IMG/VR virus record: IMGVR_UViG_3300025892_000004
Location: 1-38,549 of that record
Reading direction: 5' to 3' (one strand)
DNA length: 38,549 nucleotides
Origin: a virus
Shown here: one piece after another, positions 3,801-38,549 of the stretch
Numbering within the stretch: the first letter of the stretch is position 1
How the letters are laid out: each line of letters starts with the position of its first letter
Program-made: the position numbers and the translations under genes
Notes under the pieces: generated by a model
What the model was told of the DNA's origin: nothing
The model's input: only the letters and a program-made list of their open reading frames with translations
The model's database searches: none

Positions 3801-4170
3801 GGCACGTCCTGACATCGTTAGATACCTCAAGAATATTCAAAAGGCTGAAGCAAGTGGTGACGAAGCCGCACAACAGACTTGGCGACGTAATTTAGAGCGT
3901 TTCAGAACTTACACTGAAAATGTGAATGAGTTAACTGTAGATCCAATGTGGCTGTATCTGATGAATCCAAAATTAGCCAAAGAGATCATGCCTCTTAATG
4001 CTAAAGCAATACGAGAAGAGTTTAGGAAAGCCGGAAACAAAAAGATCCAGTTTTACTCACATCCGTTTGCCACAATCCTAGCCGCTGTTATGGGCATGGG
4101 AATGTTAGCATCCCTCGGACTCGAGGAACCTGATGAAGAGGTTATGCCAAGCGGCATCCTAACAGCGTAA
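838..4170 (+). CDS. Large internal virion / ejection-type protein with a putative zincin (HExxH) metallopeptidase domain
   Basis: This 1110-aa ORF is the largest gene, has SD AGGAAGG upstream, and sits just before the terminase genes (a T7 gp16-like position). It has an N-terminal FKITAPDGRKFKITGP motif and Ala/Gly- and Lys/Pro-rich linkers. HEMGH lies at nt 3550-3564, and there is a C-terminal hydrophobic helix FATILAAVMGMGMLASLGL. Confidence 0.6.
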   Translation: MPTFKITAPDGRKFKITGPNKEGALAALKAQLAQETQAAQTEAPDTSLSGAVQYGFNQAQSMAGKGIQSAGELTGSETLENVGQAMAEKNQAEADALNYQRPENADGIIKNLREGDIGGAGKSLLYSAAEAAPQVGVGVGTSIAAGAAMAGAPVVGGTLAAGGTLLGINQALGANRAEKEDKGLDPTATVTDLSTAIASGVIELTPLKGGGATLRVLREGAQEMGQEGLIIGGTAVQGGEYVPEEIVTRVAEAGIVGATISKGVNTTISTVNKAGETVFRTKADLDPETGQAAGDVARMMDEIAKSEGYNLRNVDPSSKKGAEATLAAARSRVMADIDQNMLVLRGEILKNADAETKARFKQTLRQATNKISNTVTKENLDFVKQKVGGTYEGRSLLNALRKSNVITEVYSSGLKGGISQFTDNFNPLPRFGRGYTPAGLLTGNINMGAAAATGGQTLAIQIPAVVGGRAIDAMTGRRSKVNTFIRKNRKKEGLADPTGPRVEGRTAALRAAAKQQAAAKKDAGQKRLQATYVAQYQEGQPPNDGGPRGTMFTAINAVDPTIQQNMTPREIDQMIDEILTRQEQRYSSRDDANAGIMLRAIKEYRQMLETGRMSKDEGPLSTAIALVKDMLPRQSVQTPPQGGNPLPPGQNTPVDERPARVRDGIAGNRAFLDGLGTRVDESTASTVDKATLKQAIGDMRLNLGSDPVPKVKSIISKAEGNLTDKKLADQYLKPYLDRVEMQQAARKAKASRAKPKAKPNAPSQETGTGDQGGDVRPDGGTPPILETPPDEGPKVKKPTKGKTKGNLPEAEALIEVGKVGTKYENGIQDVDTALEVSRLLGITAKMMNSGTALQKAAGVGRGTIATHNWNRNKKGFGSSIFFIKPFGSYKGKKTSALDSLHSALHEMGHALTQGNLDGKGEFGMAFVKNMRKGTDPVGANSYNFSVMKPLLEAKGTDPRKNPLIAEIIAFQESAKGGFTQNNPSESIQARPDIVRYLKNIQKAEASGDEAAQQTWRRNLERFRTYTENVNELTVDPMWLYLMNPKLAKEIMPLNAKAIREEFRKAGNKKIQFYSHPFATILAAVMGMGMLASLGLEEPDEEVMPSGILTA

Positions 4171-4193
4171 AGAGGCCCTTCGGGGCCTTTTCT
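4171..4193 (+). terminator. Rho-independent-type terminator after the 1110-aa gene
   Basis: Stem AGGCCC (4173-4178), TTCG loop, stem GGGCCT (4183-4188), then TTTCT. It starts immediately after the stop codon. Confidence 0.7.
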
Positions 4194-12038: not shown

Positions 12039-13871
12039 ATGGCATCATCTTTCTATTCCCAGACCGGAATCTCTAGTACAAACACAGATGCGATTCAATC
12101 GAGTACCAATAAAGCCGCTGCTTCAGAAGCAAATGCAGCATCCTCAGAGACAAACGCAGCCGCTTCAGCAACTTCAGCGACTACAAGTGCTACCGCTGCC
12201 GCAACATCTGCTACTGAATCTGCTACCAGTGCTACAGCATCTTCTGGCAGTGCCACTACTGCAGCGACCCAAGCAGCATTAGCTACAACAAATGGTGCAG
12301 CGCAAGTTGCACTGGCTACAACTCAGGCCGGACTGGCTACAACAAATGGTGAAGCCCAAGTTGCACTGGCTACAACTCAGGCCGGACTGGCTACTACAAA
12401 CGGCGCCGCACAGGTTGCACTGGCTACAACTCAGGCAACTAATGCTGCCACATCAGCAACAAATGCAGCAACTTCAGCAACTAGCGCGTCTACTAGCGAA
12501 ACAAATAGTGCTACAAGTGCCACTGCAGCCCAGACATCTAAGACTGCTTCTGAAACTGCAAAGACTGCCAGTGAACTTGCTGAGACCAATGCGGCTACTA
12601 GCGAAACAAATAGTGCCGCAAGTGCCACGGCTGCGAATACTTCTAAGGTCAACGCGGCTACTAGCGAGACAAATAGTGCGTCTTCGGCTACAGCGGCGGC
12701 TACAAGTGCGTCTGCAGCGTCTACTTCAGCAACTGCAGCGGCTACTTCAGCGACTAACGCAGCAACTTCAACAACGAATGCAGCAACTAGTGAGACTAAT
12801 GCAGCAACTAGTGCAACCAATGCTGCAGCAAGTGCTACGTCTGCATCTACTGCCCAAACAGCCGCTGAGACAGCAAAGACAGCATCTGAGACAGCAAAGA
12901 CAGCATCTGAGACTGCGAAAACTGGGGCTGAAACTGCCCTCAACAACTTTAACGCACTTTACTTGGGATCAGCATCGAGTGACCCATCAGTGGACGGTAA
13001 TGGAGACGCTCTAACTGCAGGGGATCTCTACCACAACTCTACTTCAGGAAACATGAAGTACTATACTGGATCCGCTTGGGCTGCGATTTCACAACTTGGG
13101 CCAACAGGTCCGGCAGGTCCGACAGGTTCTGCAGGTGCCGCAGGTGCCGATGGCAGTGACGGAGCCGCAGGTCCTACTGGGCCAACTGGTCCAACTGGTC
13201 CAACAGGTCCGGCAGGAGCCGCAGGTGCCGATGGTAGTGATGGTAGTGATGGTTCTGCAGGTGCCGCAGGTGCAGCAGGTCCTACTGGTCCAACAGGACC
13301 AACAGGACCTCAAGGAAACTCAGTGACAGGTCCTACAGGGCCTACTGGCCCGACAGGTCCTGCAGGTTCAGACGGCGCAGATGGCGCTCAAGGTCCGGCA
13401 GGTCCGGCAGGAAGTACTGGTCCTGCAGGTGCAGCGGGTCCTACTGGGAACACTGGCCCAACAGGATCTCAAGGTCCGGCAGGAGGCACTGGCCCAACAG
13501 GACCTCAAGGTCCGCAAGGAAGCACAGGACCTACTGGAAGCACCGGAAGTTCTGGTGGAACTGGACCAACTGGCCCGACAGGTCCGACAGGTCCGTCTGG
13601 CATAGGAACAAGTACAAGTTACGGTGGTGTTGGTAGTTATGGATTATTCTATAGGGCAAGTGCAGGTCAAAAAAGCCCCGGTTCAACTACTTCGGGCAGT
13701 AATATAGTACCTGCAAACACTTACACACACAGTACAACTCACGGAGGTTACAGCGGTTCGGGTTCGCCTTCTGGCACTTGGCGGTTAATGGGGCAGCATG
13801 GATATTATAGCAATGTTAACGCGTTTACCCGTCTGGACATGAACACTTCGGTATATTGCAGGATATCATAA
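12039..13871 (+). CDS. Tail fibre with an Ala/Thr/Ser-rich repeat domain and a collagen-like (Gly-X-Y) domain
   Basis: A 610-aa ORF. The [42 protein letters not shown] motif is common in marine podovirus fibres, from memory. About 56 Gly-X-Y triplets and a Gly/Ser/Tyr-rich C-terminal domain follow. Confidence 0.8.
12288..12440 (+). repeat. In-frame 54-nt tandem repeat (about 2.7 copies; TNG[AE][14 protein letters not shown])
   Basis: Read directly from the fibre gene. A further 21-nt x3 repeat (ETAKTAS) lies at 12867-12929. Confidence 0.85.
13098..13601 (+). repeat. Collagen-like Gly-X-Y coding repeat
   Basis: [13 protein letters not shown]...[13 protein letters not shown] with one interruption (GNSVTG). 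Pro is consistently in the X position. Confidence 0.9.
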
Positions 13872-17030: not shown

Positions 17031-17061
17031 TAAAAGGCCCCAAAGGGCCTCTTGTTTTTTT
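17031..17061. terminator. Bidirectional hairpin terminator
   Basis: AGGCCC (17035-17040), CAAA loop, GGGCCT (17045-17050). On the plus strand CTTGTTTTTTT follows; on the minus strand TTTTA follows. A second 9-bp stem (AAATCCCAA/TTGGGATTT) lies at about 17066-17107. Confidence 0.7.
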
Positions 17062-25677: not shown

Positions 25678-25715
25678 AGAAAAAGGGGCGGACCCCAGTT
25701 ACAGAAGTCCGCCCC
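25678..25715 (-). terminator. Hairpin plus T-run between the RNAP and SSB genes
   Basis: Minus strand: GGGGCGGAC, a 13-nt loop, GTCCGCCCC, then TTTTTCT. The SSB SD lies directly after it. Confidence 0.7.
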
Positions 25716-25749
25716 AGACAGGGAGAGATAAAAAGAAGAAAGACATCGC

Positions 25750-25772
25750 TTCCTTCAAGAGGGGGACATAAG
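25750..25772 (-). promoter_or_regulatory. Candidate phage-RNAP promoter (P_B)
   Basis: Minus strand: TTATGTCCCCCTCTTGAAGGAAG. It shares TGTCCCCCT plus N3-4 plus GAAG/GAAAG with the sites at 28405-28428 and 31889-31911. Confidence 0.4.
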
Positions 25773-25774
25773 TA

Positions 25775-28387
25775 CTAACTAAAACAAAAGTCGCTGTTTT
25801 TAATTTGCTCCAGATCCAAGGTTCCTTTTTCTGGGATCTTATGCTCAAAGACATGCGCCGGATTGTTCAACTGATTCCTGATCTCATCCTCAAACTTGTC
25901 GAACAGACAGTCCTCTGAATACATATCCACGAGAGTTGATCTTACAGTGTCGTAAAGATCCCAAGCGTTGCCACTGACTGAAAATGAGTCATGGATCATG
26001 AAAAAGTCTTCCGCTGTGCCATCGTCGATCATCCGACACACAACTTTATGAACGTGGGCGCTGTCGCAGCCATGGATGAAGTTGGGCGCGATGGCATTTG
26101 TCGCCTTTTTGACGTCCGCTGCATCCAACTCCTGACTGAGGCTAACTTTAGTTCTCTTGCGCTGCTTGATTGCTCGGTCATACAAAAAGATCTTGATCTC
26201 TCGACGTCTGGTCTTTCTGTAGTCTTGTACAATCGGAAAGCCGCTCGGAGATGTCCACTTGACCGCCTTATTCTCTCGCGCCAAGACCTCCGTGATGCCT
26301 TGGAGATACTCCATAGCGCCAGAGACCTTCGGTAAGGTCTTCTGGATCGCTTGGTAACTTACGTTGGCAATGAACCTAGCCGCCTCGAATTGACCTTGCT
26401 CTGTCGGCGCTATTGGGTGCTTATCGATTAGTTTGTAGGCGACTTTGCGCTGCAAAGGCTTCATAAGATCTTCGACGAATTGTGCCGCCATGCCCACTGG
26501 CTTCGAAGAGTAGCCAAAGGTCATTGTTGCTCGCTTCAGAACGGATCTTGTGATGCCGTAGTCGAGCCAGACGCGACTTAGTTTTCCGACTGTCGAACTG
26601 TCCTTCCGTTTAGCGTTAAACTTCACTTTGCTCGACCGCTGCTCCTCAAGGATCTTTGTGACACTCTCTGCATTACTGGCGTAAATGTCTGCCACGGTCT
26701 TTGACGGTACAAGGTTGACCAATGCTCCTTCACGCTGACTGCGGTTTAGGCATGAGTAGTGCTGAACGCCACTATTAGTGCCATCCATGGCGATGGGCAC
26801 ATAGCAAACAAAGTCTTCACCTTCCTCAACCCATCGAGCATACTCTAGGGCTGCGGCAACGAATTGGAACGGCTTGTCTGCTTTACTCCAAAAGTCATAA
26901 GATTGCTTAAAGTCCTTGGCTATTGAAAGAATGTTGTCGTGGTTGTCTTGGACCCACTCGACACGCTCGTCCAAGGGTGCCTTGCTGATCTTATCGAAGT
27001 CTCCGACGTTTGCCAGATGGATCATCAGCCAGTAGGCATTGTTGCCCTCGACTCTGTAGCCTCTGTAGTAGGTAAACAGCGCCTTGATGTGATCGTCACG
27101 AAAGTAGTTGAACGACGGAATGCTGTATATACGCCCTCGAAAATCAAGGTTCATCGGCAAGAAGAACTTATCGTGGACCGCTAGTTCATGCGCTGTCTGA
27201 AGATCCTGTCTCATGACCTCCGCTGCGCCCTTGACCTGCGTCACCAGTTTCTGGTGCCTACGGATGTCGGCTTTGATTTCCGCGATGACTTGCGGCTCCA
27301 ACTCTTGCCAGTTCTCCGGCATCCGTGGTCTCTCTGGTAGATCTTGAGTCGGAAACTTGCCCAACTGTTTACGCTCGTCCCAACACCACTGGACAACCTC
27401 CAGAATGGCGTCATTGATTGCGAGTGGTGTGGCTTGGATAGCGTTGACTGCTCGGACGTAATCTGGAGTGCCTTTCGTAAACTGATGTCGAATTGTATTC
27501 TCTTGCTCTATCGTTGGCGACCTCACCAACTTCACACAACTCGAAAGAAACTCATCGTGATAGGCACCAGTATCAAAGTCCGTCCATGGGTTTGGCTCTG
27601 ACAGCATCGGTTTAAATATGGGTGCCATCCAACTTAGGTATTTTTCTGACTTCTCAAGTTGCTTCTCGGCTGCTTCCGTGAACTTCAGCCGAAGCATCGT
27701 ATTGTTTTTGCCTTCGATCTCAAGTGACTTGTCGAACACATGAGAGCACTCAAGCACAATCGATAGAACAGGAGCCGCAAGTTTGGTCCGTCGTTCTTTG
27801 ATTGACTGACGCTCGGCCCTTGTCTTTGCAGTTCCAAAGTTCATTGATCGAAAGCCATTTTTCTCCGCGATAATGCGTAAAGCCTTCAGTCTGTACTTTG
27901 GACTAGAGTGTGCCGTTGTCACCTGATTGATTATTCTTTTGTTGGTGTTGCGTGGCTTTGGGCGCTCTAGTCCTGCTTTGGCTGCAATGTCTATGGCTGT
28001 CTGATGTTCCTGTTTGTCGTGCCATAGCAACTCGTTCTTTAGTAACTCTTTCTCGATCAGTTCGCCAATCGTTTGGGTTATTTGGGTGACTGTGGACACC
28101 TTCAACACCCCATTAAAAGAACACATTAGACCAATGTAAGCCAAGATATCTTCTTCAACTGTAGACAACTCTTCGACCCAAGTTGGAATCCGTCCCTTAG
28201 ACTTCCTGCCTTCTTTAAGTGCCTTTTGTATGCCTTCAGTGACTTTGGGCATTGCTTGTTTTAGGTGGTTGAAGTGGGAGGGGCTATCTGTGACATCTTC
28301 GGAGCCCTCGTGCTTGTCTTTGTATCTTTCGTTTCCTTGGTCTCTCATAGATGTTTCGTAGGCGGCATTAGTGTCTGTAGTGGTCAT
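25775..28387 (-). CDS. Single-subunit DNA-dependent RNA polymerase (T7 gene 1-like)
   Basis: 870 aa. DGTNSGVQHYS (T7: DGSCSGIQHFS); RSVLKRATMTFGYSS (T7: RSVTKRSVMTLAYGS); IHDSF; C-terminus ...DFCFS (T7: ...DFAFA). Confidence 0.95.
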   Translation of the reverse strand: MTTTDTNAAYETSMRDQGNERYKDKHEGSEDVTDSPSHFNHLKQAMPKVTEGIQKALKEGRKSKGRIPTWVEELSTVEEDILAYIGLMCSFNGVLKVSTVTQITQTIGELIEKELLKNELLWHDKQEHQTAIDIAAKAGLERPKPRNTNKRIINQVTTAHSSPKYRLKALRIIAEKNGFRSMNFGTAKTRAERQSIKERRTKLAAPVLSIVLECSHVFDKSLEIEGKNNTMLRLKFTEAAEKQLEKSEKYLSWMAPIFKPMLSEPNPWTDFDTGAYHDEFLSSCVKLVRSPTIEQENTIRHQFTKGTPDYVRAVNAIQATPLAINDAILEVVQWCWDERKQLGKFPTQDLPERPRMPENWQELEPQVIAEIKADIRRHQKLVTQVKGAAEVMRQDLQTAHELAVHDKFFLPMNLDFRGRIYSIPSFNYFRDDHIKALFTYYRGYRVEGNNAYWLMIHLANVGDFDKISKAPLDERVEWVQDNHDNILSIAKDFKQSYDFWSKADKPFQFVAAALEYARWVEEGEDFVCYVPIAMDGTNSGVQHYSCLNRSQREGALVNLVPSKTVADIYASNAESVTKILEEQRSSKVKFNAKRKDSSTVGKLSRVWLDYGITRSVLKRATMTFGYSSKPVGMAAQFVEDLMKPLQRKVAYKLIDKHPIAPTEQGQFEAARFIANVSYQAIQKTLPKVSGAMEYLQGITEVLARENKAVKWTSPSGFPIVQDYRKTRRREIKIFLYDRAIKQRKRTKVSLSQELDAADVKKATNAIAPNFIHGCDSAHVHKVVCRMIDDGTAEDFFMIHDSFSVSGNAWDLYDTVRSTLVDMYSEDCLFDKFEDEIRNQLNNPAHVFEHKIPEKGTLDLEQIKNSDFCFS

Positions 28388-28404
28388 GCGTCTGCTTTCC
28401 CTTT

Positions 28405-28428
28405 GTCTTTCTAATAGGGGGACAGATG
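28405..28428 (-). promoter_or_regulatory. Candidate phage-RNAP promoter (P_A) directly upstream of the RNAP gene
   Basis: Minus strand: TCTGTCCCCCTATTAGAAAG, with 13 nt (TCTGTCCCCCTAT) identical to the plus-strand site at 31892-31904. The predicted start G is 23 nt before the RNAP ATG. Confidence 0.45.
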
Positions 28429-28451
28429 GTGCGCCCTAAGTGAGACGCACC
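28428..28451. promoter_or_regulatory. Inverted repeat GGTGCG-N12-CGCACC abutting P_A (operator, recombinase core or RNA hairpin candidate)
   Basis: Perfect 6-bp arms, extendable to an 8-bp stem with one G-U pair. It lies immediately upstream of the promoter-like element. Confidence 0.5.
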
Positions 28452-28532
28452 TCTTGTCGAAAACAAATGTGAATTGATTGCCTGTCTAAAGTACACGCCC
28501 TTTAGTTAGGCGCTTTGTCTGCCTCGTGGTGC

Positions 28533-28994
28533 CTACTTTGTTTTCAGTAGTTCACCTATTTTTTCGTGAGAATTACTCAGGTAGTTCAGGTTATATTTGT
28601 TGGCTAAATGCGTGACGAAGTCTGCATACCCCAACCAACATTCCACAACTATCTCAGTGGCTTGGATGCTCCGGTGCTTTTGTTTATTACGCTTTATATG
28701 GATCCACCCTGCGTCTCCTGTCTCTTTGACCATGGTGTCCATCGCGGCTCGAGAGGTGCCTAGTAGCTTTTTAGTGCTACTTACGTTTGCATAGTTATCG
28801 TCCAGATGAGCGACGATTGTATGCATAAGAAACCTACGACGCAAAGAAGTCGACATAGAGTATTCTTGTATCTTTAACAGTTCCGCACTATCGATCCGTC
28901 TTCCACCTTCGCTCAGTTCGATTTCATAAGCCGCCAAGCGTCTGGCATACTCGAGCCGAAGCGTGGATCGTGCTCCTTCTAGATTATTTCTCAT
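28533..28994 (-). CDS. Hypothetical protein with an HTH-like segment (possible regulator)
   Basis: 153 aa from the ATG at 28994 (SD GGGAGA 10 nt upstream); the longest ORF would start at a GTG at 29060. The HTH-like segment is SSTKKLLGTSRAAMDTMVKETGDAGWI. The gene sits between the integrase and RNAP genes. Confidence 0.55.
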   Translation of the reverse strand: MRNNLEGARSTLRLEYARRLAAYEIELSEGGRRIDSAELLKIQEYSMSTSLRRRFLMHTIVAHLDDNYANVSSTKKLLGTSRAAMDTMVKETGDAGWIHIKRNKQKHRSIQATEIVVECWLGYADFVTHLANKYNLNYLSNSHEKIGELLKTK

Positions 28995-29059
28995 GTAAAA
29001 TTTTCTCCCAGTAGTGTAAATATGATATAAAAACTTCTCTTTCTGTCCATGCGTAGTCA

Positions 29060-31734: not shown

Positions 31735-31757
31735 TGGGGAGTTACAGTCCCCTGCCA
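31735..31757 (+). repeat. Hub hairpin motif copy 1 (TGGGGA-N4-CNGTCCCCTGYCA)
   Basis: TGGGGAGTTACAGTCCCCTGCCA. The GGGGA/TCCCC stem encloses a 7-nt loop. 18/23 positions are identical to copy 2. Confidence 0.6.
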
Positions 31758-31888
31758 CACCTTGCGGCCTGTCGCCCTATCAAATGTAAACCAAGGCCCC
31801 AACGCCTCGTTAGACCCTTAATGAATCAACGGACATCCCCTGTCAACCCCTTGCCAGTCAATTAGTGACTGAAAGAGACAATAGAAGA

Positions 31889-31911
31889 CCTTCTGTCCCC
31901 CTATAGAAGCA
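31889..31911 (+). promoter_or_regulatory. Candidate phage-RNAP promoter (P_C) heading the plus-strand block
   Basis: CCTTCTGTCCCCCTATAGAAGCA. The CTATAGAAG 3' end resembles the SP6/T7 -5..+4 region (CACTATAGAAG). Two further YCTATAG elements lie at 31940-31947 and 32016-32023. Confidence 0.45.
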
Positions 31912-32527
31912 GAAGAGCGGTGATCACTGCCGACGTCTGCACTATAGTTGACTGAGGAAACATCCTCCTCGACCACACAAAGAACACAAACAAAAGAACT
32001 TGAGTGACCTTAGTCTCTATAGACGGAGGTGCTTGAGGCGCGAGAGTCGATCCCATGAGCCGAGGCCCAACCCTCGACCATCAGGTGATCCTCTCGCAAC
32101 TAATAACACAGACAAAAGATCGGGAGTTACTAAAGATGCTGAAGAAACTGAAAGAGATTATGTGTCGCCTCATCGACGGACTAAGGAAGATCGTGAGTAG
32201 ACTTGTCGGCGCTTGTGTTGCCGTGTGGATCTGGTGTTGGTCTTGGCTCCCGAAGTCGGGCTGATTGTTCTAGTGTTTGGCTGTGTCGTGTGGCATTGGC
32301 TGCGCTTTGTGTTCTATGAGTCGAGAGAGGGCGAGAGACGGAGGCACGAGAGGCGACGAGAGAGACTGAGGCATCGTGGGCCACCTTGGAGTGATCCTGA
32401 GGTCTGATGAGGCTGTGAGTGGCTGTGGTCCCTATCTGTATCGAAAAGAAAATGACCCTCGCCGAATAAGTTTCACTAATGGCGCTAATGTCTAGCGATG
32501 CAACCATTGCATCCCCCCCAGTATCGT

Positions 32528-32550
32528 TGGGGATATTCTGTCCCCTGTCA
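32528..32550 (+). repeat. Hub hairpin motif copy 2
   Basis: TGGGGATATTCTGTCCCCTGTCA, with the same stem and loop size as copy 1. A half-site CATCCCCTGTCA lies at 31834-31845. Confidence 0.6.
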
Positions 32551-32739
32551 AAGAACACCAGTAAAAACAGTGGCTTAGTGGATCGACCTAAGAAAACTTA
32601 GGTTCCCTAGCCGAAATCAACCCCCACGCACCAACGAAAAAGATCAATTTCAAAAAGTAGACTAAAGGTCGGCGTTGTTGTTGTTGTAGTCCGTCTCTTT
32701 AAAGCAGCGGCTACTTTTGAAAACAAAAGGAACTTTAAG

Positions 32740-37489: not shown

Positions 37490-38549
37490 ATGGAATGGGA
37501 AATAATTAGCCAGAACCCTAACTTTATGTCTGCTCTAGCCAATGACCCTAGAGTCGGGCCAGATCCGAAAGCATGGTATAGCCGTCTTAGACCAGAAATA
37601 CAAAAGTCATTGGCTGAGTCTTTTATGCCAAAGTCAGGTACAGTTGCAGAGCCGATCCTAAACCCGAACATGGCCCAGACAATAAGTCAGATTAACAGAC
37701 CTGCTTTAGATCAGGTTCAACCCCTTGTTGCTGCAGATAATGGTGTACTAGCAGGTGGCTTTAATGCCGATGGCGTTGCTATTGGTACAAACATGGAAGC
37801 CGACGTAGACCCCAACAAAGGTTTCGTACCAGTCACAGTAGGGTCTGGAATGAGTATGGGTGTCGTCATGTATAATCCAGAAACTGGCGCGGTCATGCCA
37901 GTAGAGGGTAATAATGTTAGCAATCTAATCGCTCGGAACCCCAACGTCCAAAACATTGCTATGGAGGCTTACAACAACCGTGTAAATGCTCCAGTACTAG
38001 AGGCCAAAAAAAACCTTAACACTGCCCAAGGTATCATCGATGCCACAGATGGTCAGGTAAGTGGTCCTGTCCTTGAGCAGTACACAGATGCTAAACGAAA
38101 TCTGACTGAAGCCCAGAGACGCGCTATGTCTAACATGTCTGACCCTTCAGCCGTGGACATAGCAGCTAACAGACCGTCTTACGAAACTCCAGTTCTATCA
38201 GGTCTCGAAGAGTTTGAGGCAACTAATACTCCGTATGTACGTCCTACAGTGGTCAACAATCCGAATGTACCCGAAGTGTTTCCAAATCCGAATTTACCTA
38301 ACGTGGACTTTGCAGATCCAACTATGGCTCCAACAAATGCTCTTAACGCAGGGCCAGTTCTTATAAACGACAATAAGCCAAATCTGCCCTTTAATACTTA
38401 TAGCGAGAATGGAGTTCTTACCGATAACTCTGCACCAAACACTGTGACGAACTCAGGTATCTTAGGAACAGGTACGTCAAACCGTACGTCAGGTGGACCA
38501 AGTGTTCGCTCGATCATGGGTTCTTCGGGCATGAAGACCAGCAACAGAC
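37490..38549 (+). CDS. 5' part of the junction-spanning 585-aa virion protein (continues at position 128 after the overlap)
   Basis: The ATG at 37490 has GGAGG 9 nt upstream, and the frame stays open to the window end. It is absent from the ORF track because no stop lies inside the window. My translation starts MEWEIISQNPNFMSALANDPRVG. Confidence 0.7.
   Translation, partial: MEWEIISQNPNFMSALANDPRVGPDPKAWYSRLRPEIQKSLAESFMPKSGTVAEPILNPNMAQTISQINRPALDQVQPLVAADNGVLAGGFNADGVAIGTNMEADVDPNKGFVPVTVGSGMSMGVVMYNPETGAVMPVEGNNVSNLIARNPNVQNIAMEAYNNRVNAPVLEAKKNLNTAQGIIDATDGQVSGPVLEQYTDAKRNLTEAQRRAMSNMSDPSAVDIAANRPSYETPVLSGLEEFEATNTPYVRPTVVNNPNVPEVFPNPNLPNVDFADPTMAPTNALNAGPVLINDNKPNLPFNTYSENGVLTDNSAPNTVTNSGILGTGTSNRTSGGPSVRSIMGSSGMKTSNR
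38423..38549. repeat. End-overlap copy B (identical to 1-127)
   Basis: Exact 127-nt identity with the window start. Confidence 0.95.

Follow-up and report, generated by a model that had tools for sequence, protein, structure and literature searches.

The T7-type RNA polymerase (RNAP) gene of an uncultured marine phage is preceded by a motif that is very probably the promoter of its own product, and copies of the same motif directly follow the gene and head the structural genes. We base this assignment on the motif pair that flanks the RNAP gene, on its co-variation between genomes, and on the base at promoter position -10, which tracks the polymerase residue (K or Q) aligned with T7 N748. An inverted repeat abuts the upstream copy, and a tyrosine integrase and a variable MarR-like gene lie next to it. 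The best explanation of the region, to which we give slightly better than even chances on the sequence comparisons, is a self-transcribed RNAP in a positive feedback loop, combined with a leaky terminator or attenuator hairpin just upstream.

Genome organization and relatives

The whole stretch of DNA analyzed here (38,549 nt; hereafter, the window) is the circular or terminally redundant genome, of about 38.4 kb, of an uncultured marine phage. This is concluded from an exact terminal overlap, the first and last 127 nt being identical (1-127 and 38423-38549), which leaves a unit length of 38,422 nt. The genes are organized in two divergent arms. The minus-strand arm runs from 31629 down to 17109 and includes small early genes, the tyrosine integrase, the open reading frame (ORF) at 28533-28994, the T7-type RNAP, and the replication genes for SSB, endonuclease I, primase-helicase, DNA polymerase, and ribonucleotide reductase. 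The plus-strand arm runs from 32740 through the junction to 16524 and encodes structural and packaging proteins, among them a portal protein nearest to those of N4-, LUZ24-, and phiEco32-type phages (identity <31%).

The RNAP is distant from those of the phages in GenBank. A tblastn search against them matched 2,744 records, all in the <60% identity band, with the best 30 listed matches being 26.7-29.8% identical, and a DNA search of the GenBank phages with 4.9 kb around the site retrieved no match. A total of 80 related contigs, from marine metagenomes, were identified in IMG/VR, with RNAP identities from 99% to 41%. Scanning viral contigs for the promoter pattern gave mostly unrelated matches and few new relatives, and scanning metagenomes gave three new loci only. 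No integrated close relative was detected in the genome contigs scanned, where the only hit was a 6.7 kb contig of an alphaproteobacterial MAG encoding an RNAP with 55% identity. Rfam searches of the window region, at both gathering and permissive thresholds, returned nothing relevant, including for the inverted repeat, and the tRNA search found none.

Table 1 Features of the window around the RNAP gene and at the head of the structural arm
Feature	Position	Strand	Evidence or remark
Promoter copy upstream of RNAP (GCACCATCTGTCCCCCTATTAG), predicted start A28412 or G28411	28411..28432	-	27.8 bits
Second promoter copy, within RNAP stop codon onward, predicted start G25756	25755..25776	-	29.5 bits
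Third promoter copy, at the head of the structural arm (..CCCTATAGAAG), predicted start G31906	31886..31907	+	30.3 bits
Inverted repeat GGTGCGTCT-CACTTA-GGGCGCACC	28428..28451	-	9-bp RNA stem, 6-nt loop
Short purine-rich leader and ribosome-binding region (AAAGGGAAAG) between predicted start and RNAP ATG	28388..28410	-	GAGG..GAGCA conserved
T7-type single-subunit RNAP, 870 aa	25775..28387	-	Sequence comparison, alignment to T7 RNAP
Strong intrinsic-terminator-like hairpin, 12 bp then T5, between second promoter and SSB gene	25685..25715	-	Terminator scan
Small hairpin after MarR-like gene, conserved loop TAACTAAAG	28496..28513	-	One stem pair C-G versus A-T between genomes
Variable gene for predicted MarR-like winged-helix protein, 153 aa	28533..28994	-	AlphaFold and Foldseek
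Sigma-70-like site TGGACA-16-TATCAT just upstream of MarR-like gene ATG	29022..29049	-	Consensus match only, 10/12 positions
Tyrosine integrase, 280 aa	29060..29902	-	PF00589

Three copies of a predicted phage promoter

The arrangement upstream of RNAP is exactly as the earlier note had read it from the letters. On the minus strand, GGTGCG-N12-CGCACC (28451-28428) is followed by an A (28427), the 13-mer TCTGTCCCCCTAT (28426-28414), TAG, 23 nt (28410-28388), and the ATG at 28387. The 13-mer has exactly two occurrences in the window, and the other one, identical as had been stated, is at 31892-31904 on the plus strand. The caution that such a match is not rare was also justified, with about 22 pairs of identical 13-mers expected in the window (N^2/4^13).

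To score the motif we used a promoter weight matrix trained on the relatives only, with the window excluded and 20 shuffles as the background. Exactly three window sites were recovered, scoring 27.8-30.3 bits, against 9.7 for the next best site and a maximum of 16.7 in the shuffles. Each of them lies between genes, in the same orientation as the genes that follow it, and one was overlooked in the first reading, namely the copy directly 3' of RNAP that starts inside the stop codon. From -4 to +1 the motif reads TATAG, which, together with G-11, C-9, C-7, and C-5, is as in the T7 promoter (the copy at 31892 reads CCCTATAGAAG). The start sites given in Table 1 are predicted, and the occurrence, position, and orientation of the copies were observed directly.

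The upstream copy (28411-28432) and the RNAP start codon 25 nt downstream of it are not separated by a terminator, so the RNAP gene would be transcribed by its own product. This agrees with the positive feedback that had been suggested from the sequence. No host-type promoter was found between the repeat and the RNAP ATG, either by eye or by a sigma-70 scan, and none was convincing for the early unit, where only a TTGACA box near 31848-31853 on the minus strand was noticed by eye. An N4-style hairpin promoter was considered and rejected, given that a hairpin accompanies only one of the three promoter copies and none in the distant relatives.

Downstream of RNAP (25685-25776, minus strand), the promoter is followed by a GC hairpin of 12 bp and T5. 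With this order, transcripts of the replication arm must read through a terminator-like structure about 40 nt past their start. The order after RNAP is reversed in L075, from the clade with 41% RNAP identity, where the terminator comes first and then the promoter.

Conservation of the promoter and co-variation with the polymerase

The promoter pair flanks RNAP in relatives across the whole range from 99% to 41% RNAP identity. Within a genome the upstream and downstream copies are identical, and between genomes they change together. The downstream copy was seen in those relatives whose contig reaches the end of the RNAP gene, and its core matches the upstream copy of the same genome. An equivalent of the structural-arm copy is present in L006, L009, L010, and L015. 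The versions of the motif across the relatives are TGTCCCCCT, TGCCCCCC(T/C), TGTCCACCT, TGTCACCCC, and GAGACCCCT. By genome, the motif is TTCTGTCCCCCT in the window clade, L016, and L017, TTCTGCCCCCCT in L013 and L014, TTCTGCCCCCCC in L015, L022, and L038, TTCTGTCCACCT in L023 and L024, TTCTGTCACCCC in L025 and L026, and ACTAAGAGACCCCT in the clade with 41-42% RNAP identity.

In T7 RNAP, N748 reads promoter positions -10 and -11. When the RNAPs were aligned to T7 RNAP, the residue at this position was K where the promoter has T at -10, and Q exactly where it has C. The K/Q switch still tracks -10 when L016 (K, T) is compared with its close relatives L013, L015, and L038 (Q, C), and this tracking probably reflects a single evolutionary event. 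The residue at T7 R756 is invariant among these RNAPs, and so is the promoter C at -9. The suggestion of the earlier note that the motif may be the cognate promoter is supported by the three sites, their conservation in the relatives, and their co-variation with the polymerase.

We also considered that the repeated motif could be a different kind of cis element and serve as a promoter for the host polymerase, as a signal for packaging or replication, or in translation. The low copy number, only three per genome and fewer than in T7, would be in line with this, but the motif does not resemble sigma-70 boxes, its orientation always agrees with the downstream genes, its TATAG(A) initiation region is like that of T7 and SP6, and it co-varies with the RNAP specificity loop, which together make such an element very improbable.

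In one relative (L010, 88% RNAP identity), a fourth promoter copy was found at 1028 on the plus strand, at the head of the early genes, where the window sequence is unrelated. Judged by this position, the phage RNAP of L010 would transcribe the whole early region, integrase gene included.

A hairpin at the promoter edge is confined to a clade

The inverted repeat next to the upstream promoter can pair as RNA over 9 bp (including two G-U pairs) around a 6-nt loop, and promoter positions from about -16 to -21 are part of its 3' arm. As a pattern, the 6+6 repeat is unremarkable, with 6 matches at ≤3 mismatches versus 9 expected. For the window, L002, L003, and L006 alike, none of 100 shuffles gave a hairpin of this stability next to the promoter.

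The genomes that keep the repeat, L001-L006 and L009, have RNAP identities of 96% or more, and the exact repeat was seen only at this level of identity. One G-U pair is changed to A-U in L003 and L004, and the four substitutions in L006 all fall in the loop or the inner stem, with the outer arms intact. The repeat is retained across a recombination junction, with differing upstream sequences in L001 versus L002, and it is kept whether the MarR-like gene, a divergent allele of it, or the integrase stands directly upstream. The outer pairs of the homologous repeat never vary and thus lend no true covariation support, and the homology between differing hairpins is uncertain.

Like an intrinsic terminator, the repeat has a GC-rich stem, a 6-nt loop, and a position at the end of the upstream gene. 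The likeness is complete in L002 and L003, which read AAAAGAGGTGCG..CGCACCTTTTG, that is, an A-tract, a 13-bp stem, and TTTTG, forming the shape of an intrinsic terminator on both strands. The tail after the stem is TTTTGTCC in L002-L005 and L009, and ATCTGTCC in the window. The window differs in its interrupted U-tract (AUCUGU), whose bases have to serve as promoter positions -15 to -10 as well, and a simple terminator scan makes no call on its repeat.

Outside this clade the hairpin is replaced or lost. In most relatives with RNAP identities of 83-92%, the site is occupied by a different short GC hairpin, and these hairpins vary in their loops and have GGTG/CACC versus GGCG/CGCC arms. The hairpins of L187 (GTGCGT-tgtg-ACGCAC), L007 (AGGCG-taaggc-CGCCT), and L200 (ATGGCG-ttggac-CGCCAT) were equaled or exceeded in stability by 5-7 of 100 shuffles, and those of L012, L021, L011, and L197 were no better than chance (11-40 of 100 shuffles). 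There is no hairpin at this position in L010 and L186, nor in any relative with ≤71% RNAP identity, which have the AT-rich AAAAATAC instead. Since these genomes do without it, the hairpin is dispensable and, on this comparison, a clade-specific accessory outside the core design. Of the repeat-promoter arrangement whose conservation the earlier note had wanted to see checked, the promoter part therefore held from 99% to 41% RNAP identity, and the repeat did not extend beyond the close clade.

The hairpin is always at the 3' end of whichever gene precedes RNAP. The only strong terminator in the region is the one after RNAP (25715-25685), which suggests that RNAP is the last gene of an early unit passing through the hairpin. 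We give an even chance to the repeat being a leaky terminator or attenuator hairpin that would limit basal RNAP expression.

A variable MarR-like gene between integrase and polymerase

The ORF at 28533-28994 had been called HTH-like. It had no match in Pfam or PHROGs, and a profile search against PDB sequences gave a marginal MarR match only (E 0.05). The AlphaFold model (pLDDT 85.7) has MarR topology, and the top Foldseek matches in the PDB are almost all from the MarR or ArsR families (PefR, AbfR, ST1710, MepR, SlyA, and MarR), with E values of about 1e-3, TM scores of 0.4-0.5, and no sequence-level MarR signature. The call was right in that the predicted fold matches that of MarR-family winged-helix regulators.

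L002-L006, L009, and every relative with ≤71% RNAP identity lack the gene. L001 has an allele with only 49% identity (1273-1731), although the integrase and the RNAP on either side of it both match those of the window at 99%. The MarR-fold gene thus looks hypervariable, with cassette replacement as the apparent mode. The putative recognition helix, SRAAMDTM, is nearly invariant across the alleles. The integrase is upstream of RNAP in all loci extending far enough. The view of this region as a control point next to the integrase is plausible. The small hairpin at 28496-28513 and a ACAGGCAA block travel with the MarR-like gene and are better candidates than the repeat for the binding site of its product, and the hairpin is alternatively a candidate terminator of that gene.

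Alternative readings of the inverted repeat

The earlier note had offered three functions for the repeat: an operator, a recombinase core site, and an RNA processing hairpin. As an operator, the repeat would be bound by a dimeric winged-helix protein that occludes the promoter edge (-16 to -21) and holds the RNAP loop off in lysogeny. Candidates for this protein are the MarR-like product of 28533-28994 and other proteins of the phage or the host. In favor of an operator, the neighboring gene encodes a protein of predicted MarR fold, the repeat does overlap the promoter edge, palindromes of the TGACATGTCA type are found in the integrase-RNAP spacer of Roseophage CRP-403, and the study of Pseudomonas phage LUZ100 relays an earlier hypothesis, put forward for some temperate T7-like phages, of MarR binding sites on both sides of the promoter before RNAP (PMC10134795). 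However, the repeat of the window also stands in L002-L006 and L009, which are devoid of the gene, and is identical in L001 with its 49%-identical allele. The recognition helix is nearly invariant, yet the gene-carrying relatives have arm spacings from 2 to 22 nt, or no hairpin. A dimer cannot fit such a range of spacings, so an operator of the adjacent protein is unsupported. Among the relatives compared, we found neither a fixed half-site spacing nor co-occurrence with the regulator. The repeat is also single-copy, and its half-sites are under-represented (10 found versus about 19 expected). Measured from centre to centre, its 6-bp arms are 18 bp apart, wider than is known for MarR-DNA complexes. 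In the search for regulator binding sites flanking the promoter, the only palindrome was this one, which does not track the regulator gene and is single-copy in the window. We regard the operator as unlikely.

The proposal of a core site for the adjacent tyrosine integrase, with arms of 9 bp around a crossover region of 6 bp, is barely credible. The 9-6-9 geometry would fit, the integrase is about as small as Xer recombinases and begins with a SAM-like domain, and the GGTGCGC of the repeat resembles the start of E. coli dif. Phages with integrases 90-92% identical to that of the window nevertheless differ in arm spacing, with 4 nt in L187 (92% identical) and 22 nt in L011 and L197 (90-91% identical), and relatives with 64%-identical integrases have no repeat. 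The loop sequence varies, unlike that of a site obliged to match the host attB, and a 39-nt block at about 31741-31779 is better conserved. The hairpin could instead be an RNA processing or stability element that protects the 3' end of the upstream mRNA or marks an RNase cleavage site, with no termination. T7 has an RNase III site (R1) just before gene 1, the hairpin is positioned between two cistrons of a probable polycistronic early transcript, and its structure rather than its sequence is kept across the 83-99% clade. With only 9 bp in the window and no more than 13 bp in L002, however, the stem is shorter than the roughly 20 bp of typical RNase III substrates, there is no Rfam match, and many relatives are without the hairpin, so that we consider this function quite unlikely. 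It is improbable, too, that the repeat has no function of its own and is a recent local palindrome or a decaying terminator kept through recent divergence. The restriction of the exact repeat to genomes with ≥96% RNAP identity and the weak or absent hairpins of distant relatives are what would be expected in that case, but the repeat survives the recombination junction between the upstream sequences of L001 and L002, all four changes in L006 spare the outer arms, and the G-U pair altered in L003 and L004 became an A-U pair.

A proposed route to polymerase expression

The explanation that we favor, self-transcription of RNAP with a leaky hairpin upstream, would work as follows. The upstream module of early genes, integrase, and MarR-like gene is presumably read by the host polymerase, and the hairpin at its 3' end would limit read-through into the RNAP gene. 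Both the termination at the hairpin and the host transcription of this module are what we infer from the sequence. The first RNAP molecules would come from a trickle of read-through, the promoter at 28411-28432, about 25 nt before the start codon, would then amplify RNAP, and the two other promoter copies would turn on the replication arm and the structural arm.

A further possibility, which we put forward tentatively and consider doubtful, is that the choice between lysis and lysogeny is made by a minimal bistable circuit. The self-transcribed RNAP would have read-through from the integrase module as its sole trigger, the sub-clade hairpin that shares bases with the promoter would tune this read-through, and the MarR-fold protein would be an optional, fast-evolving accessory. 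If so, the switch could run without a dedicated repressor across a large uncultured marine lineage. The question bears on how integrase-carrying T7-like phages keep their polymerase silent.

Comparison with known systems

The self-promoter arrangement is not new in kind, as it was already described for the temperate, T7-like LUZ100, the first mapped case of a phage promoter before the RNAP gene. LUZ100 has a host promoter (P3), MarR and integrase genes, a leaky terminator (T4), a phage promoter (phi1), and RNAP, in this order, and the study expressly puts forward a positive feedback loop that starts from read-through by the host polymerase (PMC10134795). The window shares with it the phage-specific promoter directly before the RNAP gene (predicted here). 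A read-through terminator between the lysogeny module and RNAP may have its counterpart in the hairpin, with a weak U-tract in the window and a good one in L002-L005. An integrase is upstream in both, and the MarR-type regulator of LUZ100 may have its counterpart in the MarR-like protein of the window, a fold-level match whose gene is missing in close relatives. The MarR-fold gene of the window is located after the integrase and not before it, and close relatives can do without it; the arms of the genome are divergent, with no more than three promoter copies in total; and its structural genes are N4/LUZ24/phiEco32-like, not T7-like. LUZ100 was mapped experimentally, whereas the layout of the window is known from sequence alone.

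The remark in the earlier note that a self-transcribed RNAP is unlike canonical T7 was correct. In T7, gene 1 is preceded immediately by an E. coli promoter and followed after 26 nt by phi1.1A; there is no direct self-transcription of this kind and no integrase. The window shares with T7 the promoter copy directly after RNAP, and with T7 and SP6 a promoter that spans about 20 bp and has TATAG at its start. The specificity loop appears to be used for recognition as well, given the K/Q residue at the N748-aligned position that tracks -10. A parallel to the loop itself is the synthetic T7 autogene, reportedly made by Dubendorff and Studier in 1991, in which T7 RNAP is placed under a T7 promoter. 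Expression of the T7 autogene is autocatalytic, and basal read-through needs tight control. In both cases the polymerase gene is driven by its own promoter (predicted in the window), but the window case is natural and conserved across a phage lineage, and it has a hairpin upstream in place of the lac operator.

A cultured phage with a similar arrangement is CRP-403 (OR420752), a Roseobacter phage of the Autographiviridae with the gene order MarR, integrase, RNAP. The 13-mer AACCCTTACTAGA is present just upstream of its RNAP ATG and again just after the RNAP stop. Two more copies were detected on the plus strand, with 1 and 2 mismatches, at 13171 (between annotated genes) and 40442 (overlapping the last 2 nt of gp52), making four sites versus 0.7 expected. 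The gp4 protein of CRP-403 is a homologue of the ORF 28533-28994 product (38% identical). CRP-403 differs from the window in its canonical single-strand T7 layout, in its promoter sequence, and in having a separate annotated MarR gene. The genome paper of CRP-403 makes no mention of promoters. The integrase-RNAP spacer of this phage (L203, 3030-3260) contains TGACA/TGTCA palindromes (TGACATGTCA, GTGACGCATGTCAC, and GTGTCACA) and a GGGTAAG..CTTACCC hairpin upstream of the putative promoter; these are plausible MarR sites and a plausible terminator, respectively.

The same arrangement is therefore found in LUZ100, in CRP-403, and, by comparative evidence alone, in a broad uncultured marine lineage, which suggests that an integrase-adjacent self-amplifying loop is a general design and no oddity of LUZ100. 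The arrangement looks widespread and under-described. The marine lineage adds a predicted new pair of polymerase and promoter, and in it a putative natural switch of specificity, in which a change from K to Q at the N748 equivalent goes with one from T to C at -10.

Other features of the genome

Several further elements were noted during the comparison. A 39-nt block, AGTTACAGTCCCCTGCCACACCTTGCGGCCTGTCGCCCTA, at about 31741-31779 on the plus strand is identical in L006 and L010 despite their diverging flanks. Neither ARAGORN nor Rfam identified a tRNA in it, and within the divergent non-coding region it may serve as an attachment site, an origin, or some other cis element. From the structural-arm promoter to the first long ORF there are about 830 nt (31908-32739, plus strand) with small ORFs only, for example 32055-32264 (69 aa), and several hairpins. 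The plus-strand ORF at 12039-13871 has 21-nt repeats rich in Ala, Thr, and Ser, followed by collagen-like 9-nt (Gly-Pro-X) repeats, and probably encodes a fibre protein. Two near-identical GC hairpins (AAGAGGCCC..GGGCCTTTT) at 4170-4191 and 17032-17053 each close a block of genes and are oriented oppositely to one another, the latter at the point where the two arms converge, and both are probably terminators.
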